Position numbers and translations under genes: made by a program. Shown here in pieces: positions 2,147-59,028 of a DNA stretch of 64,000 bases; the first letter of the stretch is position 1, and every line of letters begins with the position of its first letter. Under the pieces are notes generated by a model. That model was not told the origin of the DNA, searched no databases, and saw only the letters and a list, made by a program, of their open reading frames with translations. Where the stretch lies: the sequence record PQ818761.1; one strand, 5' to 3'. The DNA comes from Escherichia phage EcoM2.

Positions 2147-4513
2147 ATGCGCATGGTAAACGACCACGCAGAAGTGATTAAGAGTTCAACTTCTTTAGAG
2201 ACGTCTCAAGCACAGATTACAATGACACCTGAAATGTTCAGCCTTTTGAGTTCTGGTGTATATACCTTTAAAGAAAGGGCAGTGATTCGTGAACTGTCAT
2301 GTAACGCAGTAGATGCTCAGAAAGAAGCTGGAAAAGAGAATATCCCGTTCCATGTGCATTTACCTACTCGTTTTGAGCCTTACTTTGAAGTTCGTGATTT
2401 TGGAACTGGATTGACTCATGATAAAGTTATGAGTTTGTATCTAAATTACGGGGCTTCTACGAAGAATGACTCTAATGACTACATTGGTGCAATGGGTATC
2501 GGCTCAAAATCCCCATTTGCAATTGCTCAGTCATTCACAGTGTCTAGCTATGTTGACGGTGTTGTTAATAAGTACTCTGTTTATCTTGAGAATGGTATCC
2601 CTCAAGTAACTAAGCTGACCACTAACCCAACAAAAGAACCTAATGGTTTAGCTGTACGTGTGGCAGTTGCTGACCACCGTATTTCAAAGTTCTTTGAAGA
2701 GGCTGGTAATGTATACTCATACTTTGCTGTAAAACCAGAGAGTAATGTGGAGTATAATGATATATTAGCAGATATGGATGTGATTGCTCGTGAAGAAGGT
2801 GTCTATGATGCCATGACTCATAAGCATAGCTGGCGTTCAAGCAGCAATAGAACAGAGTTTAACGTGGTTATGGGTAATATTGCCTACCCAGTTAATATGG
2901 AGGCATTACTTGGTGATGATTTCTTCAAAGTCTTGCCAGAATTTTTCCGTAGGAGCGTAGACCTTGTAAACATCTACATGCCTATTGGTTCAGTTGCTAT
3001 CGCAGCTTCTCGTGAAGCATTGCAGATGAATGACACGACAAAAAATGTTATCATTGAGGCTACTAAAAAGATAACTGAAGCAATTACAAAGGATGTTATC
3101 AAGAAAGTTAATAGCCAACCTACACTCATGGATGCTGCACAGGCTTATGCTGAGTTACGTTTGAACTCACGAGAGATGTTTAATGCTGTGTGTCCAAAGC
3201 TAGAGTGGGGTGGTGTTAAGCTTGATTCTCTGGAAGAAGAATTACTAAACATTCGTCGTGGAATTATCTACGCAGAAGACGGCTCAGTCATTTATGAACG
3301 TGACGGCAAAGGTAATATTAAGGTTGATAGGAACGGGAACAATATCCCTAAAGTAGATTATCTTTATGACCCAGTTGCTTATGTCAAGTTCAACTCTTTA
3401 GAGAGTAAGATTCGTGCAACATCGCTTTCCTACACTCAAGAGGCAAGTATGTTCAATATCTTTGGTGCAATGCGTAAAAGCCAAATTGAACAGTTTTTGT
3501 TTGTTATAAATGACCGTCGCAATAAAAACGGTACTGAGAAGACTGTAGGACGCAATCAAATCTTGCGTGGTGCATGTCGAGACTATGCCAGTGAGTCTAG
3601 TCTGTTTCACAGATACAATGGTATTGTCTTTGTATTCTCGACTGAAAAAGAGCTAGATGACTTAATCAATCTACACAAACTTGACAAAAGCTTGTTAAAG
3701 ATTGTGAAGATGTCTGATAAGGAACACCATTATCAGCGTAAAGAAGCTGTAAGAGGTGTTGTAAAACTCTGGAAAGCTGTTCCAGCAGAAGGTGTAGCTT
3801 CCTATAAAGAGGTTTCAGAGGACTTAGACACAATTGAAGAGCCTCAACTTTATATCAAGGCAGTCGGTGACACAGTTGATGGCGAATGTTTTTGCTCATC
3901 TCCAGAAGATGTAGCTAAGTCAGTTGCCAATGTCATTGGAAAGACAGTCTATGTTTTCCGAAAAGCAAATTGGAAAAAGATACCAGAAGACTGGATTGAA
4001 GTAGATGAGAAGCTCTTGAACGACAGCTTAACTGATGTTCACTGGATTAACCATAACAGGTATATGACACGTATCTATATGAATGGTGTTCTTGACCTTA
4101 CAAGCAGTTGGATTATTGCCAGAAACTTTACGTTCAATAACAGGAAGATTTCTCGTGGCTATTGCTATTCACGAGACACAAACAAAACTATCTTCTTAGA
4201 AGGCAATGAAGATGCTGTAGAGGCAATGTTCGGTAAAATCCAATACGTTGCTGCACCGTTTGCATACACTTACACTATTAGCAGATTGCAAACTTTGAAA
4301 GAATGCCTTGACAATGATACAAAGCTATACAAGAAAATTAAGAAAGCTGGTGACCGTATGGTTATTAAGGTGACAAACTATCTTTCAAAAAGAAAACAAG
4401 AAAACTTCTTGCTTTCTCATTTAGATTGGAATAAAGTGTCACCCATCGAAGTGAGTAAGTTCTTAGGCTTTGATGTGAAGTGTGTTCCAGAAGGGACTAC
4501 AATTTACGATTAA
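2147..4513 (+). CDS. rIIA: rIIA-like protein with N-terminal GHKL-type ATPase fold
   Basis: 788 aa; Bergerat-fold-like motifs (VRDFGTGLT, GAMGIGSKS); size and position before a second large gene match the rIIA-rIIB pair of T4-like and Felix-O1-like phages. Confidence 0.55.
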   Translation: MRMVNDHAEVIKSSTSLETSQAQITMTPEMFSLLSSGVYTFKERAVIRELSCNAVDAQKEAGKENIPFHVHLPTRFEPYFEVRDFGTGLTHDKVMSLYLNYGASTKNDSNDYIGAMGIGSKSPFAIAQSFTVSSYVDGVVNKYSVYLENGIPQVTKLTTNPTKEPNGLAVRVAVADHRISKFFEEAGNVYSYFAVKPESNVEYNDILADMDVIAREEGVYDAMTHKHSWRSSSNRTEFNVVMGNIAYPVNMEALLGDDFFKVLPEFFRRSVDLVNIYMPIGSVAIAASREALQMNDTTKNVIIEATKKITEAITKDVIKKVNSQPTLMDAAQAYAELRLNSREMFNAVCPKLEWGGVKLDSLEEELLNIRRGIIYAEDGSVIYERDGKGNIKVDRNGNNIPKVDYLYDPVAYVKFNSLESKIRATSLSYTQEASMFNIFGAMRKSQIEQFLFVINDRRNKNGTEKTVGRNQILRGACRDYASESSLFHRYNGIVFVFSTEKELDDLINLHKLDKSLLKIVKMSDKEHHYQRKEAVRGVVKLWKAVPAEGVASYKEVSEDLDTIEEPQLYIKAVGDTVDGECFCSSPEDVAKSVANVIGKTVYVFRKANWKKIPEDWIEVDEKLLNDSLTDVHWINHNRYMTRIYMNGVLDLTSSWIIARNFTFNNRKISRGYCYSRDTNKTIFLEGNEDAVEAMFGKIQYVAAPFAYTYTISRLQTLKECLDNDTKLYKKIKKAGDRMVIKVTNYLSKRKQENFLLSHLDWNKVSPIEVSKFLGFDVKCVPEGTTIYD

Positions 4514-4592
4514 AGTGTTTGACAAGGGGCTTCAAAGCCCCTTAGAATAGCCTCACAAAATGATTTATTAACTAACAAGAGAGAGTAATAAG

Positions 4593-5702
4593 ATGACTAC
4601 TAAAACTAAAGCACAGATTGACGCAGAAATTTATGAACTGGTTAAAGAAGGTAAGCTGACTAAAACAGCTATTGCACAGAAGTTCAATACTTCAACCCGT
4701 TCAGTTGGTCGTGCTGTAGAGCGTCATGAAGCAACCTTAAAAGGCAAGAAAAAGGCAACTTCTAAGCCAGCTACAAAGACTTTGAAGCAAGTTGCTAAGT
4801 CAGTTAAAAAGAAAGCTGGCAAACCAGTTGAAAAGGTTGTTAAAGACACTGTACAGAAAGCTCCAGTAAATAAACTGCACGAAGCTATGCAGAAAGATGA
4901 TAAGATTGAGTACATGATTACTGGTGACTCTGTAATTATGACTTACGGTTCAGAATCTGAAATTGTTGAGTCTACTCATCCGAACTATCAAGAGATTGTA
5001 GTTCATGTTGTGAAAGGTGAGTTCAAGAAAGCATTTGAACTGATGAACATTCGTAAGTCTATCGAAAACTTCACTCAGGGTGCTATCACAATCAAAGGTG
5101 ACAAGTTATTCTACGGTGCTGTTGAGATGCGTTCTACTCTGGTTGACCGTATTCTTCACATGATGAAGACTGGTGATAAAGGTTTTGAACGACTTGTAAT
5201 GTTCTTCGAAAAACTGATGGAAAACCCATCTAAAGACTCTGTAGAACAACTTTGGGGCTTCGTATCTCACCTTGATGTCGAAATTGATGAAGAAGGCTAC
5301 ATCATTGGTTGGAAGAAAGTATCCACTCGTGAAGGCAAGCTGGTTGACTCCCACACCTACAAAGTACCTAATGATTTGGGTAACGTTGTAGAAATGCCAC
5401 GTTGGATGGTTGATAATAACCGTAACGTAACTTGCTCTCAGGGTCTTCATGTTGGTGCTTGGGATTATGTTCGTTGCTTCTCAGGTGATACAATCCTGAA
5501 GGTTCGTGTCCATCCACGAGATGTTGTATCTGTTCCGACTGATTACAACGATATGAAGATGCGTTCATCCCGTTATGAAGTTGCAGCAATCGTTGATAAT
5601 CAACGTAAAGTGTTGAAAGCATGGGACGGTAAGACTGAAGCTTTGCATGTCATCGTTGGCACTGCTGGTGAACTCATCTCCCAACGTAAACGTGAAATCT
5701 AA
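4593..5702 (+). CDS. rIIB-like protein (putative)
   Basis: 369 aa immediately downstream of the rIIA-like gene; N-terminal HTH-like segment; assignment by synteny only. Confidence 0.4.
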   Translation: MTTKTKAQIDAEIYELVKEGKLTKTAIAQKFNTSTRSVGRAVERHEATLKGKKKATSKPATKTLKQVAKSVKKKAGKPVEKVVKDTVQKAPVNKLHEAMQKDDKIEYMITGDSVIMTYGSESEIVESTHPNYQEIVVHVVKGEFKKAFELMNIRKSIENFTQGAITIKGDKLFYGAVEMRSTLVDRILHMMKTGDKGFERLVMFFEKLMENPSKDSVEQLWGFVSHLDVEIDEEGYIIGWKKVSTREGKLVDSHTYKVPNDLGNVVEMPRWMVDNNRNVTCSQGLHVGAWDYVRCFSGDTILKVRVHPRDVVSVPTDYNDMKMRSSRYEVAAIVDNQRKVLKAWDGKTEALHVIVGTAGELISQRKREI

Positions 5703-33155: not shown

Positions 33156-33230
33156 TAGTCCAAGTAGCTTATATGGTTAAAGCGCGTGTCTGAAAAACAT
33201 GAGAAGAGGGTTCAAATCCCACTGGACTAC
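33156..33230 (+). tRNA. tRNA-Phe (anticodon GAA)
   Basis: Acceptor TAGTCCA/TGGACTA; anticodon stem CGTGT/ACATG loop CTGAAAA; T-loop TTCAAAT; 3' CAA (CCA not encoded). Confidence 0.55.
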
Positions 33231-33248
33231 CAATTTCAAAGGTGCTTA

Positions 33249-33983
33249 ATGAAAGAGATGACAGAACAAGGTAAGGAGATTTTTAATCTCTTAAAAACCG
33301 GTAGAGGGTTTTCTAATCCCCTTATTACTGGTGCAGCAGTTCTAGGTGGAACCGTAGCTGCCTCTACATCACTTGTAAGCTCTATTAGCTCTGTAACAGA
33401 CCCTACAATAAAGGATAAGCTTGTTGCCGCTGGACTGACAACAGTTCTGCTTAACAGCTTTACAACGAGTCTGACAAGCACTACATCAACTACTAAGACA
33501 TTGACAGATTATGGTCAAAAGTCTATTGATGAGTTTTCCTCACGTATGCAGGTAGCAAAAGGCTACTCCAATGTTATGGGTGCAGCAGGAGAGCAAGTTG
33601 GTTGTACACCATTTAGTGGTATTATGGGTGTTGCTACAGAGTATGGTCAAAAAGCTATTGACACAATTAACAGTGCACTAGACGGTGTTAATGATGTATT
33701 AAGTGACTTACAAGATGCTATTGATAAAGGTCTTGATACTGTTTCTGATTTAGCTAACCAAGCTGTTAGTAAGATTAATGAAGGTATCTCGAAGATTACA
33801 GCTTATGCAGATGAAGTTGTGCAGATGATTGAAGAAGAAGCTGCCCTTATTGCAGAGTACCTTAAAACGAATATCAATGGGTTCTTAGCAGGTATCTTAC
33901 CAGACTGGTTTGATGATGCTTGTAAAACTGGTGTAATTGACACTATTGCAACACCAGAAATGAAGAACGCATTACAGAAATAA
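33249..33983 (+). CDS. hypothetical protein (Ser/Thr-rich N-terminal region, acidic helical C-terminus)
   Basis: ATG 33249 with AAAGG RBS; track ORF start 33186 rejected because it overlaps tRNA-Phe. Confidence 0.5.
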   Translation: MKEMTEQGKEIFNLLKTGRGFSNPLITGAAVLGGTVAASTSLVSSISSVTDPTIKDKLVAAGLTTVLLNSFTTSLTSTTSTTKTLTDYGQKSIDEFSSRMQVAKGYSNVMGAAGEQVGCTPFSGIMGVATEYGQKAIDTINSALDGVNDVLSDLQDAIDKGLDTVSDLANQAVSKINEGISKITAYADEVVQMIEEEAALIAEYLKTNINGFLAGILPDWFDDACKTGVIDTIATPEMKNALQK

Positions 33984-33984
33984 T

Positions 33985-34077
33985 GGAAGATTAACCCTAA
34001 AAGGTAAGGGAGCAGTTTGCTAAACTGCCAGTAGCTGAGAAATCGGTGTACCAGTTCAAGTCTGGTATCTTCCTCCA
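33985..34077 (+). tRNA. tRNA-Ser (anticodon GCT), class II
   Basis: Acceptor GGAAGAT/ATCTTCC; D-arm CCC-TAAAAGGTAA-GGG; anticodon stem GCAGT/ACTGC loop TTGCTAA; ~21-nt variable arm; T-arm ACCAG-TTCAAGT-CTGGT; CCA encoded. Confidence 0.6.
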
Positions 34078-34081
34078 ATTT

Positions 34082-34157
34082 GAATCCGTGACAGAAATGG
34101 CTATGTGCCTGTCTGCAAAACAGGTTTATAAGGGTTCGAGTCCCTTCGGATTCTCCA
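34082..34157 (+). tRNA. tRNA-Cys (anticodon GCA)
   Basis: Acceptor GAATCCG/CGGATTC; anticodon stem CCTGT/ACAGG loop CTGCAAA; T-arm AAGGG-TTCGAGT-CCCTT; CCA encoded. Confidence 0.6.
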
Positions 34158-45857: not shown

Positions 45858-53873
<8,016 letters not shown>

Positions 53874-53875
53874 TA

Positions 53876-55048
53876 ATGGCAGTAGGTGAAATTCAAATTA
53901 GTGCCTTGCCTCAAGCAGCCTTACCAATTGACCTTAGTGATATCTTCCATCTTAAGCAGGGTATTGAGGATAAAAGGTGTACTCTTGAGCAATTACTTGC
54001 TCCACACTCAAGCCTAAGAAATAACCCTCATGGTGTTACTAAAACACAAATTGGTTTAGATAATGTTATTAATGCTCTTCAGTTAGTCGCTGCAAATAAC
54101 TTATCAGATATTGTTAATGTAGCTGAGGCAAGAGCAAATCTACAGATTATGTCTTCAGAAGAGGTTAATAACCTTGTCCAACAACACATCAAGGACAAGA
54201 GTAACCCACACAATACAACTAAGGCACAGGTTGGCTTAAGTAATGTTCAGAACTGGACAACATCTGACCTTTATAATGAAGATGCAAATAAGTATGCTAC
54301 AGCAAGAGCAGTAAATAACTTGTACAAGGCTGTTCAGGCTTCTTATCCAGTAGGTACTATTCATCTTTCTATGAACTCTGCAAACCCTTCTACATATTTA
54401 ATTTGTGGGGGTACTTGGGAGCTAGTTTCAAAGGGTAGAGCATTGGTTGGCTATGACTCTGACACAAGACCAGCAGGTTCTGTATTTGGTGCTTCAACTG
54501 TTACTTTGTCAGTTAATAATATGCCTCAGCACTCCCACTCTGTGTCTCTTAGTGGTGGTGGTCACACTCATAGTGCCACTGTGTCAATTTCAGCTTTTGA
54601 CTATGGAACTAAGACTACCAATTCTTTTGACTATGGAACAAAGACTACTAATACAACTGGTAATCATACACACAGTGTGTCAGGTAACACAAGTACAAAC
54701 GGTACTCATGACCATGATGTGTACCCTAGAGAAAATGATGGTACTGGTAATGCTGTAGCTGACTCTGATGGTGGTGGTGCAAGAAGGACATCAAGGACAT
54801 CTAGTGACGGTGCACACTCACACAGTTTTAGCGTTACATCTGGTGCATCTGGTAACCACAGCCACACAGTCGGTATTGGTGCTCACAGCCACACAGTCGG
54901 CATCGGCTCACATACACACAGTGGTTCTGTAACAGTTTCTTCTTCTGAGCATACACACAGTGGGAACACAAATAGTGTTGGTAGTGGACAAGCTTTCAAT
55001 ATTGAACAGCCATCCTTCGTACTATATGTATGGCAGAGAACAGCTTAA
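53876..55048 (+). CDS. tail fiber protein with C-terminal HxH-repeat tip domain
   Basis: 390 aa; C-terminal HxH repeats (SHSHS, GHTHS, NHTHS, AHSHS, NHSHT, AHSHT, SHTHS, EHTHS); tandem SFDYGTKTTN duplication. Confidence 0.6.
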   Translation: MAVGEIQISALPQAALPIDLSDIFHLKQGIEDKRCTLEQLLAPHSSLRNNPHGVTKTQIGLDNVINALQLVAANNLSDIVNVAEARANLQIMSSEEVNNLVQQHIKDKSNPHNTTKAQVGLSNVQNWTTSDLYNEDANKYATARAVNNLYKAVQASYPVGTIHLSMNSANPSTYLICGGTWELVSKGRALVGYDSDTRPAGSVFGASTVTLSVNNMPQHSHSVSLSGGGHTHSATVSISAFDYGTKTTNSFDYGTKTTNTTGNHTHSVSGNTSTNGTHDHDVYPRENDGTGNAVADSDGGGARRTSRTSSDGAHSHSFSVTSGASGNHSHTVGIGAHSHTVGIGSHTHSGSVTVSSSEHTHSGNTNSVGSGQAFNIEQPSFVLYVWQRTA

Positions 55049-55094
55049 TTTCTTTACAGGGACTTTGTAGTCCCTTTTTAGAGGAAAATTTATA

Positions 55095-57446
55095 ATGGCA
55101 GATTACAAGTTGAGTGAATTAAACTCAATCGATACAATCCGTTCAGATGACCTTCTCCATGTCAGGGTTAAAAAGAGACCTGAAATGCTTGGTGATGAAG
55201 ACCGTCGAATGACCTATCAAGACTTCTTAGCATCTTTTAAACTTGAAAGATTTGTTCAGATTGCTGGTAGCACTATGACGGGTGACTTAGGGATTGTTAA
55301 GTTACTTTATGGTGGTAAGGTAGTATTTAACCCAACAGGCTCTTCTGAGATTAATATTGGGGATGTTTTAAAGACTTTTAAAATCAATGCAAATGGCCTT
55401 AAACTAACTATTGCAGATGCTTCAAGGTCGGCAACCGTTTATCATACTCTGAATAAGCCAAGTCCTAATGAGCTTGGTATGAGAACTAATGAAGAGAATG
55501 ATGCAAGATATGCAAGACTTGCTGTAAATAACACCTTTAGAGGCACTCAAGCTATCCTCTCTGACAATGAAGCACTCATTATCAAAAATATCACTCAAGG
55601 TGCTCCACTCTATCTTCGTGGTCAAGATGCAGATGGTACTAACAGATGGTATCTAGGTAATGATAATAGGGGTACACATAATCTTGTATTAAAGAATGTA
55701 AAGTCCGACGTTTCAATTGCTATTTTAGAGAATTTGGTGACAGTCAACAGGACTCTTCAAATTGCTGGTCAAGTTCAACCTTCAAGTTTTGCTAACTTAG
55801 ATGCTAGATATTTTACCCAGACAGTAGCTAATCAGAGGTTTGCACAGTTAGCTGGTAATAACACATTTAGTGGCTCTAATATTTTCACTAATTTTGTTGT
55901 TAAGAAGAACGCTAATGCTATTACTCTGCAAAATGTAGATACAACTGCTGCTTTGTATATCCAAGCAAGAAAATCAGATGGAACTAATAAGTGGTACATT
56001 GGTAATGACGGTGATGAGAACATTGTAAACATCTATAACTATTTAGCAAAAACACAAATCTCATTAGGCAACACCATTACCATGAGTAGAACAGTCCAAA
56101 TTGGTGGTCAAGTGCAACCTTCTGATTGGACTAACATCGACTCTAGATATATTCCAGCAGCCACTTTGAGTAATCTCCCTAAACTTAATGTCTCTAATAC
56201 TTTCACAAATGTGCAGACTATTGTATCTAACAATGAGGGTTTGGTATTAAGGAACTTGACACAGGGGCAGCCACTATATATCCGTGGTGTTGATACCGAG
56301 AATGTCTCTAGATGGTGGTTAGGTGTAGGTGGCCCAAACTCTAATGTGGTAACACTGAATAACAACTACTCTGACACTAAAATCTCACTTGGTGGTACAT
56401 CAGTAATGGCTAATAAGAGTTTAGCTATCACTGGACAGGTACAACCTTCTGATTGGTCTAACTTAGATGCTAGGTACTATACCCAATCCGCCGCAAACGC
56501 AAGGTATATGCTAGCAAGTATCACTGATACAGCTTCTGAAAAGGATGGTGATGGTGTTGCATGGAATGCAAAAACAGGTCTCTATAAGGTTACTAACTCA
56601 ACGGGCCAGTCTTCTGCACTTGTGTATCACCTGTTTTTGGGCACTAGTTCTACGCCCTCTGCACAATTAAAGTTTAGCTTTAAAAATGGTGGGATGTGGT
56701 ATAGGTCATCAAGAGATAATTATGGTTTTGAGGCTAGCTGGTCCAAAGTTTACACGGAAGCACAAAAGCCAACTCCTTCAGAGATTGGTGCATATACTAA
56801 AGCAGAGACTGACCAGAAGATTGCAACAGCAATTAGTGACTCTACAGACCTGAATAAAATCTACCCAGTGGGTATTGTAACGTGGTTTAATAGTAATGTT
56901 GACCCTAATACAGCACTTCCTGGGTTAACTTGGACGTACCTGAACAATGGTGTTGGTAGGACTATCAGAATCGCAGCAGCAAACGGTTCGGATGTTGCTA
57001 CAACAGGCGGCTCAGATTCTGTGACGTTAGCTGTTGGTAACTTACCATCACATACCCATAGTTTCTCTGCTACCACTTCATCTTTTGATTATGGTACAAA
57101 GAACACTAATAGTACTGGTGCACACACTCACTCAGTTAGTGGTACTGCTGCATCTGCTGGACAACACGCGCACAAGATTTCACAGGGTGATAACGCTAAC
57201 GTTTCATCAGGTAGAGTCGCGTCTTCAAACTCTAGACAGACCCATGTTGGTTGGACTGAAAATGATGGTGCACACACTCACTCAGTCAGTGGTACTGCTG
57301 CATCTGCTGGGGGGCACGCTCACTCTGTAGGTATTGGTGCTCACAGTCACACAGTAAGTGGTAACACTGGTGGTACAGGTTCTGGTTCAGCATTTAGTGT
57401 TACTAACCAGTTCTACAAGTTAATGGCTTGGGTAAGAACTGCTTAA
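55095..57446 (+). CDS. tail fiber protein (long) with three ~95-aa tandem repeats and C-terminal HxH tip module
   Basis: 783 aa; repeats each ending ...GQVQPS(D/S)(W/F)xN(L/I)D(A/S)RY; C-terminal SFDYGTKNTN and AHTHSVSGTAASAG x2 shared with upstream fiber. Confidence 0.65.
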   Translation: MADYKLSELNSIDTIRSDDLLHVRVKKRPEMLGDEDRRMTYQDFLASFKLERFVQIAGSTMTGDLGIVKLLYGGKVVFNPTGSSEINIGDVLKTFKINANGLKLTIADASRSATVYHTLNKPSPNELGMRTNEENDARYARLAVNNTFRGTQAILSDNEALIIKNITQGAPLYLRGQDADGTNRWYLGNDNRGTHNLVLKNVKSDVSIAILENLVTVNRTLQIAGQVQPSSFANLDARYFTQTVANQRFAQLAGNNTFSGSNIFTNFVVKKNANAITLQNVDTTAALYIQARKSDGTNKWYIGNDGDENIVNIYNYLAKTQISLGNTITMSRTVQIGGQVQPSDWTNIDSRYIPAATLSNLPKLNVSNTFTNVQTIVSNNEGLVLRNLTQGQPLYIRGVDTENVSRWWLGVGGPNSNVVTLNNNYSDTKISLGGTSVMANKSLAITGQVQPSDWSNLDARYYTQSAANARYMLASITDTASEKDGDGVAWNAKTGLYKVTNSTGQSSALVYHLFLGTSSTPSAQLKFSFKNGGMWYRSSRDNYGFEASWSKVYTEAQKPTPSEIGAYTKAETDQKIATAISDSTDLNKIYPVGIVTWFNSNVDPNTALPGLTWTYLNNGVGRTIRIAAANGSDVATTGGSDSVTLAVGNLPSHTHSFSATTSSFDYGTKNTNSTGAHTHSVSGTAASAGQHAHKISQGDNANVSSGRVASSNSRQTHVGWTENDGAHTHSVSGTAASAGGHAHSVGIGAHSHTVSGNTGGTGSGSAFSVTNQFYKLMAWVRTA
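55540..56470 (+). repeat. three tandem ~285-bp repeats encoding ~95-aa fiber shaft modules
   Basis: Conserved LQIAGQVQPSSFANLDARY / VQIGGQVQPSDWTNIDSRY / LAITGQVQPSDWSNLDARY blocks in translation. Confidence 0.55.
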
Positions 57447-57453
57447 TCCCTTG

Positions 57454-57482
57454 TTGACTGATTGTTAAGATGGTGTTAATAT
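57454..57482 (+). promoter_or_regulatory. sigma70-like promoter (TTGACT-N17-TAATAT) with embedded inverted repeat
   Basis: AGATGGTG ... CACCATCT inverted repeat flanking the -10. Confidence 0.5.
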
Positions 57483-57525
57483 TCTTTATGGGTATTCTCA
57501 CCATCTTGGCTGATGAGGTGATTAA

Positions 57526-57723
57526 ATGCCTACAATCCTAGCAATTCTTCTAAAAAATCTAGGTAGCTTCTTCTGGAAACTCATTTTATCCCTTCTAAGT
57601 GAATACATGATTGAGAAAGTGTTCTTTAGGCTTGCAAGATACCTTGCGAGTAAAACAGACACACCTATTGATGATGAGTTCGTAGATAATTTAGAAAAAG
57701 CTTTTAAGGGGGAGAATAAATGA
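57526..57723 (+). CDS. small membrane protein (holin-like candidate)
   Basis: 65 aa; N-terminal hydrophobic/amphipathic segment, charged C-terminus; own promoter. Confidence 0.35.
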   Translation: MPTILAILLKNLGSFFWKLILSLLSEYMIEKVFFRLARYLASKTDTPIDDEFVDNLEKAFKGENK

Positions 57724-58091
57724 AGTGGCTAGAGGAAGCTTTTAAAAATAATATTGGTGCAATTGTAGTTGGTATTTTTAGTGTTATTGGGATGTATACC
57801 ACGATGCAAGTTTCAAGTGGTAAACAAGAAGTGTCTGTCACAACAAAGTTACAGCAGCTAGATAATTATTCCAAAAGTAACTATTCAGCTATTCGTGATT
57901 TACAGTCTGACATGAGACTGATTCAGCTAGGGATGGAGAACCAGAAAGTTCAGTTAGAGAATGTTAAGGGTGAAAACGCAAAACTTACCAAAACTCTTGA
58001 TAAATTCTCTGACAGTGTGAATAATCTGGCTCAATCAGTATCAGCCCTCCAAGCTATTACTGAAAAGAACACAAAGAGTACTGAAAAGTAA
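57720..58091 (+). CDS. membrane-anchored coiled-coil protein (lysis-associated candidate)
   Basis: 123 aa; N-terminal TM (IGAIVVGIFSVIGMY) then coiled-coil-like region. Confidence 0.35.
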   Translation: MKWLEEAFKNNIGAIVVGIFSVIGMYTTMQVSSGKQEVSVTTKLQQLDNYSKSNYSAIRDLQSDMRLIQLGMENQKVQLENVKGENAKLTKTLDKFSDSVNNLAQSVSALQAITEKNTKSTEK

Positions 58092-58097
58092 AGTTTA

Positions 58098-58125
58098 AGG
58101 CTCCTTTTTTACGGGAGCCTTTTTT
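58098..58125 (+). terminator. rho-independent terminator (possibly bidirectional)
   Basis: AGGCTCC-ttttttac-GGGAGCCT followed by TTTTTTG; between convergent units. Confidence 0.6.
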
Positions 58126-58128
58126 GTT

Positions 58129-59028
58129 TTATTTACCTACTGACAAAGGTGCTTCAATCTTTCCTGCATGTTGGTAGTTGTTAATGCCACCAATAAAATC
58201 ACTTGCAGTAAGATGTTTAAGGTCACTTAGAGTGTTAAGTTGTACACCAATCTCAAAAGTAGGTGCATGGAACTCTTCATTGTTCATCAGTTCATAAACC
58301 TGCTTCATATGGTTCTGGTAAATCTGAGTATCCCCAAAGACACCTATCAAGTATCGTGGAGTGTATCCAGTCATCTTACAAAGAACTTCCAGAATAAAAC
58401 CATAAGACGCAATATTAAATGGAAGTCCTAAAAAGGTGTCTACAGAGCGTTGATACCATTGTAAGTCAACTTCACCTTCGTTGGTGATATAAATCTGAAA
58501 CAGAACATGACAAGGTGCTAAAGCCATCGAGTTTGCTGCAATATCTGCTGCATTCCAAGCATTAACAATCATGTAACGGTCTGTGATATCACCTTTCATC
58601 TTCGTTACTAAGGTTTCTAACTGGTCTACAACACAACCATTATGACCTTCAAAGTTTCTCCACTGAACCCCGTAGATTCTCCCACCTGCATCTTCTAACC
58701 AGTCTTGCTCAGAAGAATAGTTAGAGCTTAACCAGCGTTTAAAATCATCTGACCAGATAGTCCAACGTTCTCCATCATTTTCACCCCAAGTGCGATAACG
58801 GAGTTCACCAAGTTTATTCTCACCATTCAGGAACCATAAAGCTTCCCCAATGACTTGCCGTGTAAACACCTGTTTAGATGTTAAGAGCGGGAAACCAGTT
58901 CGCATATCAAAACGAAATTGTGGTGGAGCAAATGCAGAGATAACATCTCCAGTTCGTGTAGTACGCAGTTCGCCAACAGATAAAACATGGTTCAGGATAT
59001 TTTTGTAACTCAAATCAGCTTGTGACAT
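58129..59028 (-). CDS. thyA: thymidylate synthase
   Basis: 299 aa; ThyA-like active-site region LAPCH and FLGLPFNIASYG. Confidence 0.8.
   Translation of the reverse strand: MSQADLSYKNILNHVLSVGELRTTRTGDVISAFAPPQFRFDMRTGFPLLTSKQVFTRQVIGEALWFLNGENKLGELRYRTWGENDGERWTIWSDDFKRWLSSNYSSEQDWLEDAGGRIYGVQWRNFEGHNGCVVDQLETLVTKMKGDITDRYMIVNAWNAADIAANSMALAPCHVLFQIYITNEGEVDLQWYQRSVDTFLGLPFNIASYGFILEVLCKMTGYTPRYLIGVFGDTQIYQNHMKQVYELMNNEEFHAPTFEIGVQLNTLSDLKHLTASDFIGGINNYQHAGKIEAPLSVGK

Follow-up and report, generated by a model that had tools for sequence, protein, structure and literature searches.

Two neighbouring tail-fibre genes of Escherichia phage EcoM2 encode proteins that both end in a run of HxH motifs. 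This raises the question of whether the two tips are true relatives of the metal-coordinating tips of T4 long tail fibres, to which an earlier note on this DNA had likened them, and whether, as it had proposed, the two genes have exchanged modules with each other. We analysed the genes within a 64,000-nucleotide stretch of the genome (PQ818761.1), referred to here as the window. Both fibre ORFs were found where the note had placed them (Table 1), and the region comprises both baseplate fibre genes, the short (STF) and the long (LTF), of a Felixounavirus (Felix O1-like myophage). The locus was 93% identical in nucleotide sequence, over 100% of the query, to the tail-fibre loci of VpaE1-like Felixounavirus phages, and 239 phage records matched it. 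The gene order (wedge, 100-aa platform, STF, LTF, two small ORFs and thymidylate synthase on the opposite strand) was conserved: the order 285-aa protein, 100-aa protein, STF and LTF was the same in VSe102 and VpaE1, and the tail-fibre gene order was identical in VSe102, VpaE1 and ev108. In Bas63, the LTF platform (gp25) is the attachment point of the long fibre (PMC12609058). Taken as a whole, the locus very probably encodes a Felixounavirus STF and LTF, each with a T4 gp37-type HxH tip and an exchangeable head.

Table 1. Features of the tail-fibre locus (positions in the window)
Feature	Position	Strand	Remarks
100-aa protein	53571..53873	+	Bas63 gp25 'LTF platform' ortholog by size and synteny; PHROG 4141, function unknown
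Short tail fibre gene (390 aa)	53876..55048	+	PHROG 2097, E=1e-135; VpaE1 gp74 / Bas63 gp26 ortholog
STF collar domain, aa ~154-218	54335..54529	+	Gp10_C / tail-collar fold; Pfam PF21939, E=3.6e-17
STF ascending needle strand	54530..54715	+	4 HxH (aa 219, 230, 264, 278) and two FDYGTKTTN units
STF head cassette, aa 281-313, DVYPRENDGTGNAVADSDGGGARRTSRTSSDGA	54716..54814	+	Predicted receptor-binding tip
STF descending needle strand	54815..55045	+	5 HxH (aa 314, 328, 337, 346, 359), then predicted C-terminal return to collar (…FVLYVWQRTA)
Long tail fibre gene (783 aa)	55095..57446	+	PHROG 4277 full-length match; VpaE1 gp75 / Bas63 gp27 ortholog
Three tandem LTF shaft repeats, aa 141-250, 251-364, 365-478	55515..56528	+	One PF20744 domain each
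LTF 'knob' cassette, about aa 484-584	56544..56846	+	PF12604, Pfam E=2e-20; homologous to part of Mu S
LTF collar (aa 587-652) and ascending needle strand	56853..57173	+	3 HxH (aa 653, 677, 691), one SFDYGTKNTN unit
LTF head cassette, aa 694-726, KISQGDNANVSSGRVASSNSRQTHVGWTENDGA	57174..57272	+	Predicted receptor-binding tip
LTF descending needle strand	57273..57443	+	3 HxH (aa 727, 741, 750), then predicted C-terminal return to collar (…YKLMAWVRTA)
Direct-repeat pair, 57 nt, flanking LTF head	57117-57173 and 57267-57323	+	51/57 nt, 18/19 aa, GAHTHSVSGTAASAGxHAH

When the fibres were compared by phmmer with the T4 gp37 tip (PDB 2XGF), the STF matched over aa 145-362 (E=8.9e-29) and the LTF over aa 646-762 (E=2.5e-14), with blastp identities of 39% and 43%, respectively. 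The similarity spanned both collar and needle. In a three-way alignment all seven T4 HxH motifs were matched by HxH in the STF, which has two extra at the collar end, and six of the seven in the LTF. The spacing of the motifs agreed as well (T4, 32, 14 / 37 / 14, 9, 9; STF, 11, 34, 14 / 36 / 14, 9, 9, 13; LTF, 24, 14 / 36 / 14, 9), with a gap of 36 residues between the HxH groups of the window fibres. FDYGTK, VGIGAHxHTV and a C-terminal R(T/L)A are common to T4 and both fibres, the C-terminal xxWxRTA of the fibres aligning with xxIVRLA of gp37. Together with the gap, this match implies that the chain may turn back at a small distal head and run to the collar again, a fold described for the Bas63 orthologues (PMC12609058). 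These results indicated that the likeness to the T4 tips reflects true homology, which supports the idea of a metal-binding HxH needle in both tips. The count of about six motifs in the LTF had been correct, and that of about eight in the STF should be nine, a number also found in 36 of 74 Felixounavirus STF clusters.

The region has a biased composition and short repeats, and its HxH runs could in principle be a Gly/Ser/Thr/His low-complexity coincidence with no structural role; the earlier note had named such coincidence as a possible refutation for the blocks shared by the two fibres. We rejected this explanation, which has practically no chance of being correct. None of 20,000 residue shuffles reached the observed HxH count in the STF (mean 1.41), even when only its His-rich tip was shuffled, or in the LTF (mean 0.35). 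Furthermore, the motifs aligned column for column with 2XGF, the H-x-H positions were more than 90% conserved in an alignment of 67 sequences, and 611 cluster representatives matched at E≤1e-10.

The fold of the STF tip was then modelled as a monomer with AlphaFold2 from the 67-sequence alignment, giving a mediocre model (pLDDT 71, pTM 0.35; head pLDDT <50). In a Foldseek comparison of this model with the PDB, the collar alone found a counterpart, the C-terminal domain of T4 gp10 (2fkk, 31% identity), and the 2XGF needle was absent from the matches, so that the histidine geometry proposed here is drawn from the alignment. We infer that each fibre is a homotrimer. The tip would start with the collar domain, followed by an ascending β-strand bearing HxH motifs; a head of ~33 residues at the distal end would contact the receptor, and a descending HxH strand would return the C-terminus to the collar. 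One HxH from each of the three chains would place six imidazoles around one metal ion (Fe2+ in T4), predicting nine stacked metal sites in the STF and six in the LTF. As T4 gp37 has seven such layers, the needle should be shorter in the LTF and longer in the STF than in T4.

The metal itself has to be considered. It could be argued that the needles are gp37-like and hold another metal, such as Zn2+, or are only partly occupied, the two extra STF layers perhaps being empty. The short fibre of T4, gp12, has been reported to hold Zn2+. Sequence alone cannot give metal identity; the number of HxH motifs in the family spans 1 to 13, suggesting that the rules of occupancy are not fixed, and their placement on the two strands is very different in phage ST32. 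We nevertheless consider another metal or partial occupancy unlikely, since the T4 gp37 tip, the closest solved homologue, has been described as coordinating Fe ions through seven di-His motifs (PMC12609058), and no gp12 chain was among the PDB matches of either fibre at E≤1 (phmmer). 'Short tail fibre' is best read as a name for length, not as a sign of gp12 homology.

T4 gp37 is the distal part of a jointed fibre of four proteins, whereas each of the window fibres is made of a single short protein that binds the baseplate directly. Beside the fibre genes, nothing resembling the chaperones gp38 or gp57A was recognised, suggesting that fibre folding may differ from that of T4; the two ORFs downstream (57526-57723 and 57720-58091) belong to PHROGs of unknown function, the second being annotated as a holin in VSe102. 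Neither head of the window fibres is related to the T4 head, although one with 80% identity to it occurs on other fibres of Felixounavirus.

The LTF adds a β-helix shaft to this plan. The earlier note had described three tandem shaft repeats of ~95 aa; three repeats were indeed found, with a period of 109-113 aa (nucleotide spacing 339 and 327), 95 aa being the length of the Pfam domain in each unit. Scanned separately against PF20744, the units gave E=1.8e-21, 6.4e-14 and 2.7e-29, with bit scores of 76.4, 52.2 and 101.4, all above the gathering threshold of 21.7 bits. They shared 36-47% pairwise identity, and each ended in Q(I/T)xGQVQPS(D/S)(W/F)xN(L/I)DxRY. Distal to the shaft, aa 484-580 matched residues 336-430 of S, the tail fibre protein of phage Mu (PDB 8ju3, E=3.8e-22). 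The corresponding part of Mu S is located near the distal end, whereas the LTF domain is internal and followed by the gp37-type tip. Despite their names, neither PF20744 nor PF12604 matches T4 gp37.

We then asked whether the two tips had exchanged modules within this genome. The proposal of a recent swap, together with a recent duplication of SFDYGTKTTN in the STF, drew on identical short peptides in the two proteins. SFDYGTKxTN was found in both, as two units in the STF (AFDYGTKTTN and SFDYGTKTTN, aa 240-259) and one in the LTF (aa 663-672). HTHSVSGTAASAG, which had been taken as common to both fibres, occurs twice in the LTF (aa 677 and 727), and the STF has only HTHSVSG followed by other residues. 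At the nucleotide level, VGIGAHSHTV matched at 27 of 30 positions between the genes, and in VSe102, another Felixounavirus, the same head is present on both fibres. T4 gp37, however, also carries SFDYGTKGTN, HTHSGSG and VGIGAHTHTV, indicating that SFDYGTKxTN, HTHSxSG and VGIGAHSHTV are needle scaffold motifs and not traces of exchange between STF and LTF. Moreover, an alignment of 239 aa gave 36% identity between the two tips, which are no more similar to each other than either is to T4 gp37. The best nucleotide matches between the genes covered 39-98 nt at 72-85% (the longest, 98 nt, at 72%), with no long stretch above 90% identity; the HTHSVSG codons matched at only 12 of 21 nucleotides, and the STF and LTF heads were unrelated. 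A recent swap between these two genes is thus very improbable.

The same holds for the age of the duplication. An internal tandem in the STF was confirmed as a 30-nt × 2.0 array (54593-54652, 93% matches) whose units agreed at 27 of 30 nucleotides, as might be expected of a recent event. However, FDYGTK occurs in one to four copies among homologues, almost every orthologue has both units, and T4 has a comparable pair (DLGTKTTS and SFDYGTKGTN), indicating that the duplication is old. A second small tandem in the STF, absent from the earlier note, was also found (27 nt × 2.5, HSHTVGIGx, 54857-54922).

The general idea of exchange proved right when other phages were compared, even though the evidence first cited for it does not show exchange. 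The cassettes (both heads and the LTF knob) had nucleotide identities of 34-60% between flanks of about 90-100%. Among 48 STF orthologues, hypervariability (identity 0.2-0.4) was confined to the head, which was 50-60% identical to that of LF82P9 at the nucleotide level between flanks of more than 87%; it was present in 25 GenBank coliphages, including VpaE1, whose gp74 head is 96% identical to it. The LTF head was 44-60% identical in nucleotides to those of VpaE1, LF82P9 and VSe102, and the knob 34-49% identical to those of LF82P9 and VpaE1. In place of the knob, other Felixounavirus LTFs carry unrelated cassettes of 103 or 164 aa. Within the LTF family we counted at least 8 types of head and 9 knob clusters, which were paired in 26 combinations. 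The same head types occur on STF and LTF and in other phage families, and T4-like heads are found on both scaffolds. Gp76 of the Chaseviridae phage ST32 shares the collar, needle and head plan, and its head is 74% identical in amino acids to the window LTF head (71% in nucleotides over 152 nt); it differs in its N-terminus and phage family, and in that its ascending strand bears five HxH at short intervals and no FDYGTK unit is present. Collectively, these data showed that cassettes are exchanged within the genus and outside it, and that in other phages they have also passed between STF and LTF scaffolds. Heads and knob probably move between phages by recombination inside the conserved needle and shaft flanks.

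A further-reaching reading is that the HxH arms form a universal socket that accepts heads between STF and LTF and across at least three families (Ounavirinae, Chaseviridae and Straboviridae). The LTF arms would have been homogenised into the 57-nt direct repeats, about 90% identical, and these repeats may delete the head to give natural head-less fibres such as the database variant P0135, from which precisely the head and one 57-nt repeat, together 50 aa, are missing. If so, the two different heads of the window would represent two independently swappable receptor specificities. Taken jointly, these proposals are tentative, and we regard them as somewhat doubtful.

As for the receptors, specificity is predicted to reside in the head, and the Mu S-like knob of the LTF probably adds to it. 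As the two heads differ, each fibre probably recognises a surface structure of its own. The specificity of VpaE1 is for the truncated LPS core of E. coli B (PMC4690856). The receptors of the window fibres are most likely LPS core features, an assignment extrapolated from VpaE1, which has the window's STF head but not its LTF head. The VpaE1 wild type also differs in its LTF knob.

The architecture described here is real but ordinary, since the VpaE1 (2015) and Bas63 (2025) papers had described it before for this genus. VpaE1 gp74 aa 146-362 and gp75 aa 584-780 were reported to be homologous to the T4 gp37 adhesin (Viruses 2015, PMC4690856), and cryo-EM of Bas63 revealed a collar, HxH needle and head in both STF and LTF, with 7 and 6 di-His motifs (Sci Adv 2025, PMC12609058). 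The window shares genus, gene order and domain plan with VpaE1 gp74/gp75 and Bas63 gp26/gp27, including an N-terminal baseplate binder in the STF and six HxH in the LTF; the STF differs from that of Bas63 in having nine HxH instead of seven. A variable tip and a variable mid-region had also been reported for fibres of this type (PMC4690856, PMC12609058), and this locus adds nothing new to the biology beyond these two papers. A paper on APEC phages (ASO1A/B) states only that tail fibres vary, and a bioRxiv 2026 receptor-prediction paper holds no fibre-level data for Felixounavirus. The locus sets host range in phages used for Salmonella and E. coli diagnostics, biocontrol and therapy, and the limits of the heads (STF aa 281-313, LTF aa 694-726) and of the knob (here taken as LTF aa ~462-565), with their conserved flanks, are practical cut points for engineering it.

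Two alternative-frame ORFs within the fibre genes (54447-54758 and 57034-57330) were rejected as genes, being by-products of repeated His, Thr and Ser codons. Scans for promoters and terminators over 53000-58500 remained at background level except for one strong terminator-like hairpin at 58097-58121, which closes the operon.

The window was identified as DNA of a Felix O1-like myophage of the genus Felixounavirus. Nucleotide comparison of 53876-57446 retrieved 239 phage records, headed by Escherichia phage VpaE1_ev108 (93% identity, 100% query coverage); nearly all were Felixounavirus of Escherichia, Salmonella, Citrobacter and Shigella, annotated with two consecutive tail-fibre genes. The genes run in the order 489-aa wedge protein, 285-aa wedge protein, 100-aa protein, short tail fibre (STF, ORF A), long tail fibre (LTF, ORF B), two small ORFs and a terminator-like hairpin, after which thymidylate synthase lies on the opposite strand; the tail-fibre gene order is identical in VSe102 and VpaE1. 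In the cryo-EM description of Bas63 the corresponding proteins were named wedge 2, wedge 1, LTF platform, STF (gp26) and LTF (gp27) (PMC12609058). Both small ORFs belong to PHROGs of unknown function, the second being a holin by VSe102 annotation, and no tail-fibre chaperone gene was recognised in either.

Features of the window, with related loci in other phages (last two rows, coordinates of their own records)
Feature	Position	Remarks
ORF A (STF)	53876-55048	390 aa
STF NPHxxTKxQ(I/V)GLxNVxN copies	54011-54079; 54191-54259	aa 46-68 and 106-128, spaced 60 aa; N-terminal half
STF tandem array, SFDYGTKxTN	54594-54652	30 nt x 2, 93% matches
STF tandem array, HSHTVGIGx	54857-54922	27 nt x 2.5
ORF B (LTF)	55095-57446	783 aa
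LTF direct repeats flanking head	57117-57173; 57267-57323	57 nt, starts 150 nt apart, 51/57 nt identical; encode GAHTHSVSGTAASAGxHAH
Two small ORFs	57526-58091	65 and 123 aa, hydrophobic N-termini; downstream of LTF
Terminator-like hairpin	58097-58121	strong; end of operon, facing thymidylate synthase gene
Central spike protein	50200-50823	207 aa; C-terminus …NEHTHHYYW
tRNA gene cluster	28699-34157	25 genes, + strand
VSe102 STF and LTF (L003, Salmonella virus)	1501-2667; 2718-5063	shared head cassette TVGGRYGGDSIGGKQRVQVSGT…
ST32 gp76 tail fibre (L004, Escherichia phage, Chaseviridae)	3317-4363	window LTF head type ISQGDNANVxxGRVASSNSxQTHVG

This system has been described before. In VpaE1, the C-termini of both fibres were found in 2015 to be homologous to the T4 gp37 adhesin, with conserved N-termini and a highly variable gp75 mid-region (PMC4690856). 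The 2025 study of Bas63 recognised a collar, HxH needle and head in both fibres, with 7 and 6 di-His motifs whose number is related to needle length, and located the variability in the tips and LTF repeat domains (PMC12609058). The finding was thus already known, and the locus represents an ordinary case of the described system. Three small additions are made here: Felixounavirus STFs most often have 9 HxH motifs (36 of 74 clusters); the knob, an internal cassette that is a PF12604 domain in ORF B, and the head, a ~33-residue distal cassette predicted to bind the receptor, assort independently in LTFs; and head types are common to STF and LTF, also across phage families.

The earlier note had counted about 8 and about 6 HxH motifs. 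We found 9 in ORF A and 6 in ORF B, far above the means of 1.41 and 0.35 expected from residue shuffling (observed counts reached in 0 of 20000 shuffles), and the excess in A persisted when shuffling was restricted to its His-rich 151 residues. Both counts lie within the normal range: among 1.84 billion cluster representatives the STF tip matched 7283 at E<=1e-3 and 611 at E<=1e-10, the best matches carrying 1 to 13 HxH motifs (mode 7). The proposed analogy with the metal-coordinating tips of T4 is supported and is one of homology rather than resemblance: both C-termini match the crystallised receptor-binding tip of T4 gp37 (2XGF) in sequence, A over aa 145-362 (E=8.9e-29) and B over aa 646-762 (E=2.5e-14). 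In a three-way alignment the 7 T4 motifs fell on HxH at 7/7 positions in A and 6/7 in B. The spacings are nearly identical (T4 32,14 | 37 | 14,9,9; A 11,34,14 | 36 | 14,9,9,13; B 24,14 | 36 | 14,9). Compared with T4, A thus carries an additional HxH on each of its two strands, at the collar end, and B has one HxH and one FDYGTK unit fewer. Needle length hence increases from LTF to T4 to STF. PF21939 recognises the collar, and an AlphaFold2 monomer model of the STF tip likewise matched the C-terminal domain of T4 gp10. For the needle, the model was uninformative (pLDDT 71, pTM 0.35); unlike the model, the needle is expected to be an intertwined trimer. In T4 gp37 the chain turns back at the head to form a six-stranded barrel needle, in which di-His motifs coordinate Fe ions (PMC12609058). 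Elsewhere in the STF, the two NPHxxTKxQ(I/V)GLxNVxN copies are probably the counterparts of what was described as 'triple alpha-helix and turn' in the Bas63 STF.

The observations of the earlier note are real, with minor corrections; its interpretation is only partly supported. SFDYGTKxTN is indeed common to both proteins and doubled in tandem in A, but the second proposed shared block, HTHSVSGTAASAG, is a repeat internal to B of which A has only HTHSVSG. These blocks do not support the suggested module exchange between the two genes: SFDYGTK(G)TN, HTHS(G)SG and VGIGAH(T)HTV all occur in T4 gp37 too, and the tips of A and B share 36% identity over 239 aa, against 39% for A and 43% for B with T4. 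The best nucleotide matches between the genes span 39-98 nt at 72-85%, the HTHSVSG codons agree at 12/21 nt, and the two heads are unrelated. Nor did the duplication of SFDYGTKTTN prove recent. FDYGTK units number 1 to 4 among homologues, the first T4 copy is degenerate (DLGTKTTS), and both copies of A are conserved across the STF orthologue alignment, indicating an old duplication of variable copy number.

Three tandem shaft repeats were confirmed in B, not with the ~95-aa period first proposed: they start 339 and 327 nt (113 and 109 aa) apart, 95 aa being the length of the PF20744 domain found once in each (E=1.8e-21, 6.4e-14 and 2.7e-29, scanned separately). Pairwise identity between them is 36-47%. 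The knob (aa 484-584), a PF12604 domain, shares homology with a portion of fibre protein S from phage Mu (8ju3, E=3.8e-22). T4 gp37 and gp34 gave no match to PF20744 or PF12604, whose Pfam names, 'gp37_trimer' and 'gp37_C', are therefore misleading for LTF aa 141-584; the solved relative of this region is Mu S, not T4 gp37. In the LTF a T4 gp37-like tip is thus combined with a shaft and knob of Mu S type. P0135, a 734-aa database variant from a single Logan contig, lacks exactly 50 aa of the LTF, namely one flanking repeat plus the head; the loss would be due either to a natural deletion giving a head-less fibre or to a collapse during assembly of the contig.

Exchange does take place between phages, at the level of cassettes. 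In 48 STF orthologues the sole hypervariable stretch was the head (~aa 270-325), with identity to A of 0.2-0.4 versus 0.8-0.95 elsewhere. The 120 LTF homologues showed two variable stretches, a domain at aa ~462-565 and the head (aa ~685-735); between these stretches and after them, collar and needle base were ~100% conserved. Clustering resolved the heads into at least 8 types and the knobs into 9 clusters, the latter with unrelated 103-aa and 164-aa cassettes among them; heads and knobs occurred in 26 combinations. Against VpaE1, LF82P9 and VSe102, nucleotide identity was 34-60% in cassettes and 90-100% in flanks. Head types were found on both scaffolds: the STF and LTF of VSe102 bear one head (76% nucleotide identity over 267 nt), showing that STF-LTF head exchange does occur within the genus, although not recently in this case, and a head 80% identical to that of T4 gp37 is present on some STFs and some LTFs. 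The window's LTF head also occurs in ST32 gp76 (74% aa, 71% nucleotide), whose needle differs in lacking the FDYGTK unit and in carrying five HxH close together on its ascending strand, and in a more distant form in Tequatrovirus SP18 gp37. The STF head is 96% identical to that of VpaE1 gp74; VpaE1 is specific for the truncated LPS core of E. coli B (PMC4690856).

A third protein of the same tail module, the central spike, also carries an HxH motif, at the position of H188/H190 in the Bas63 puncture apparatus, where it was proposed to hold iron. Outside this module, the window contains a tRNA gene cluster, as is typical for Felix O1-like phages; VpaE1 was reported with 22 such genes.
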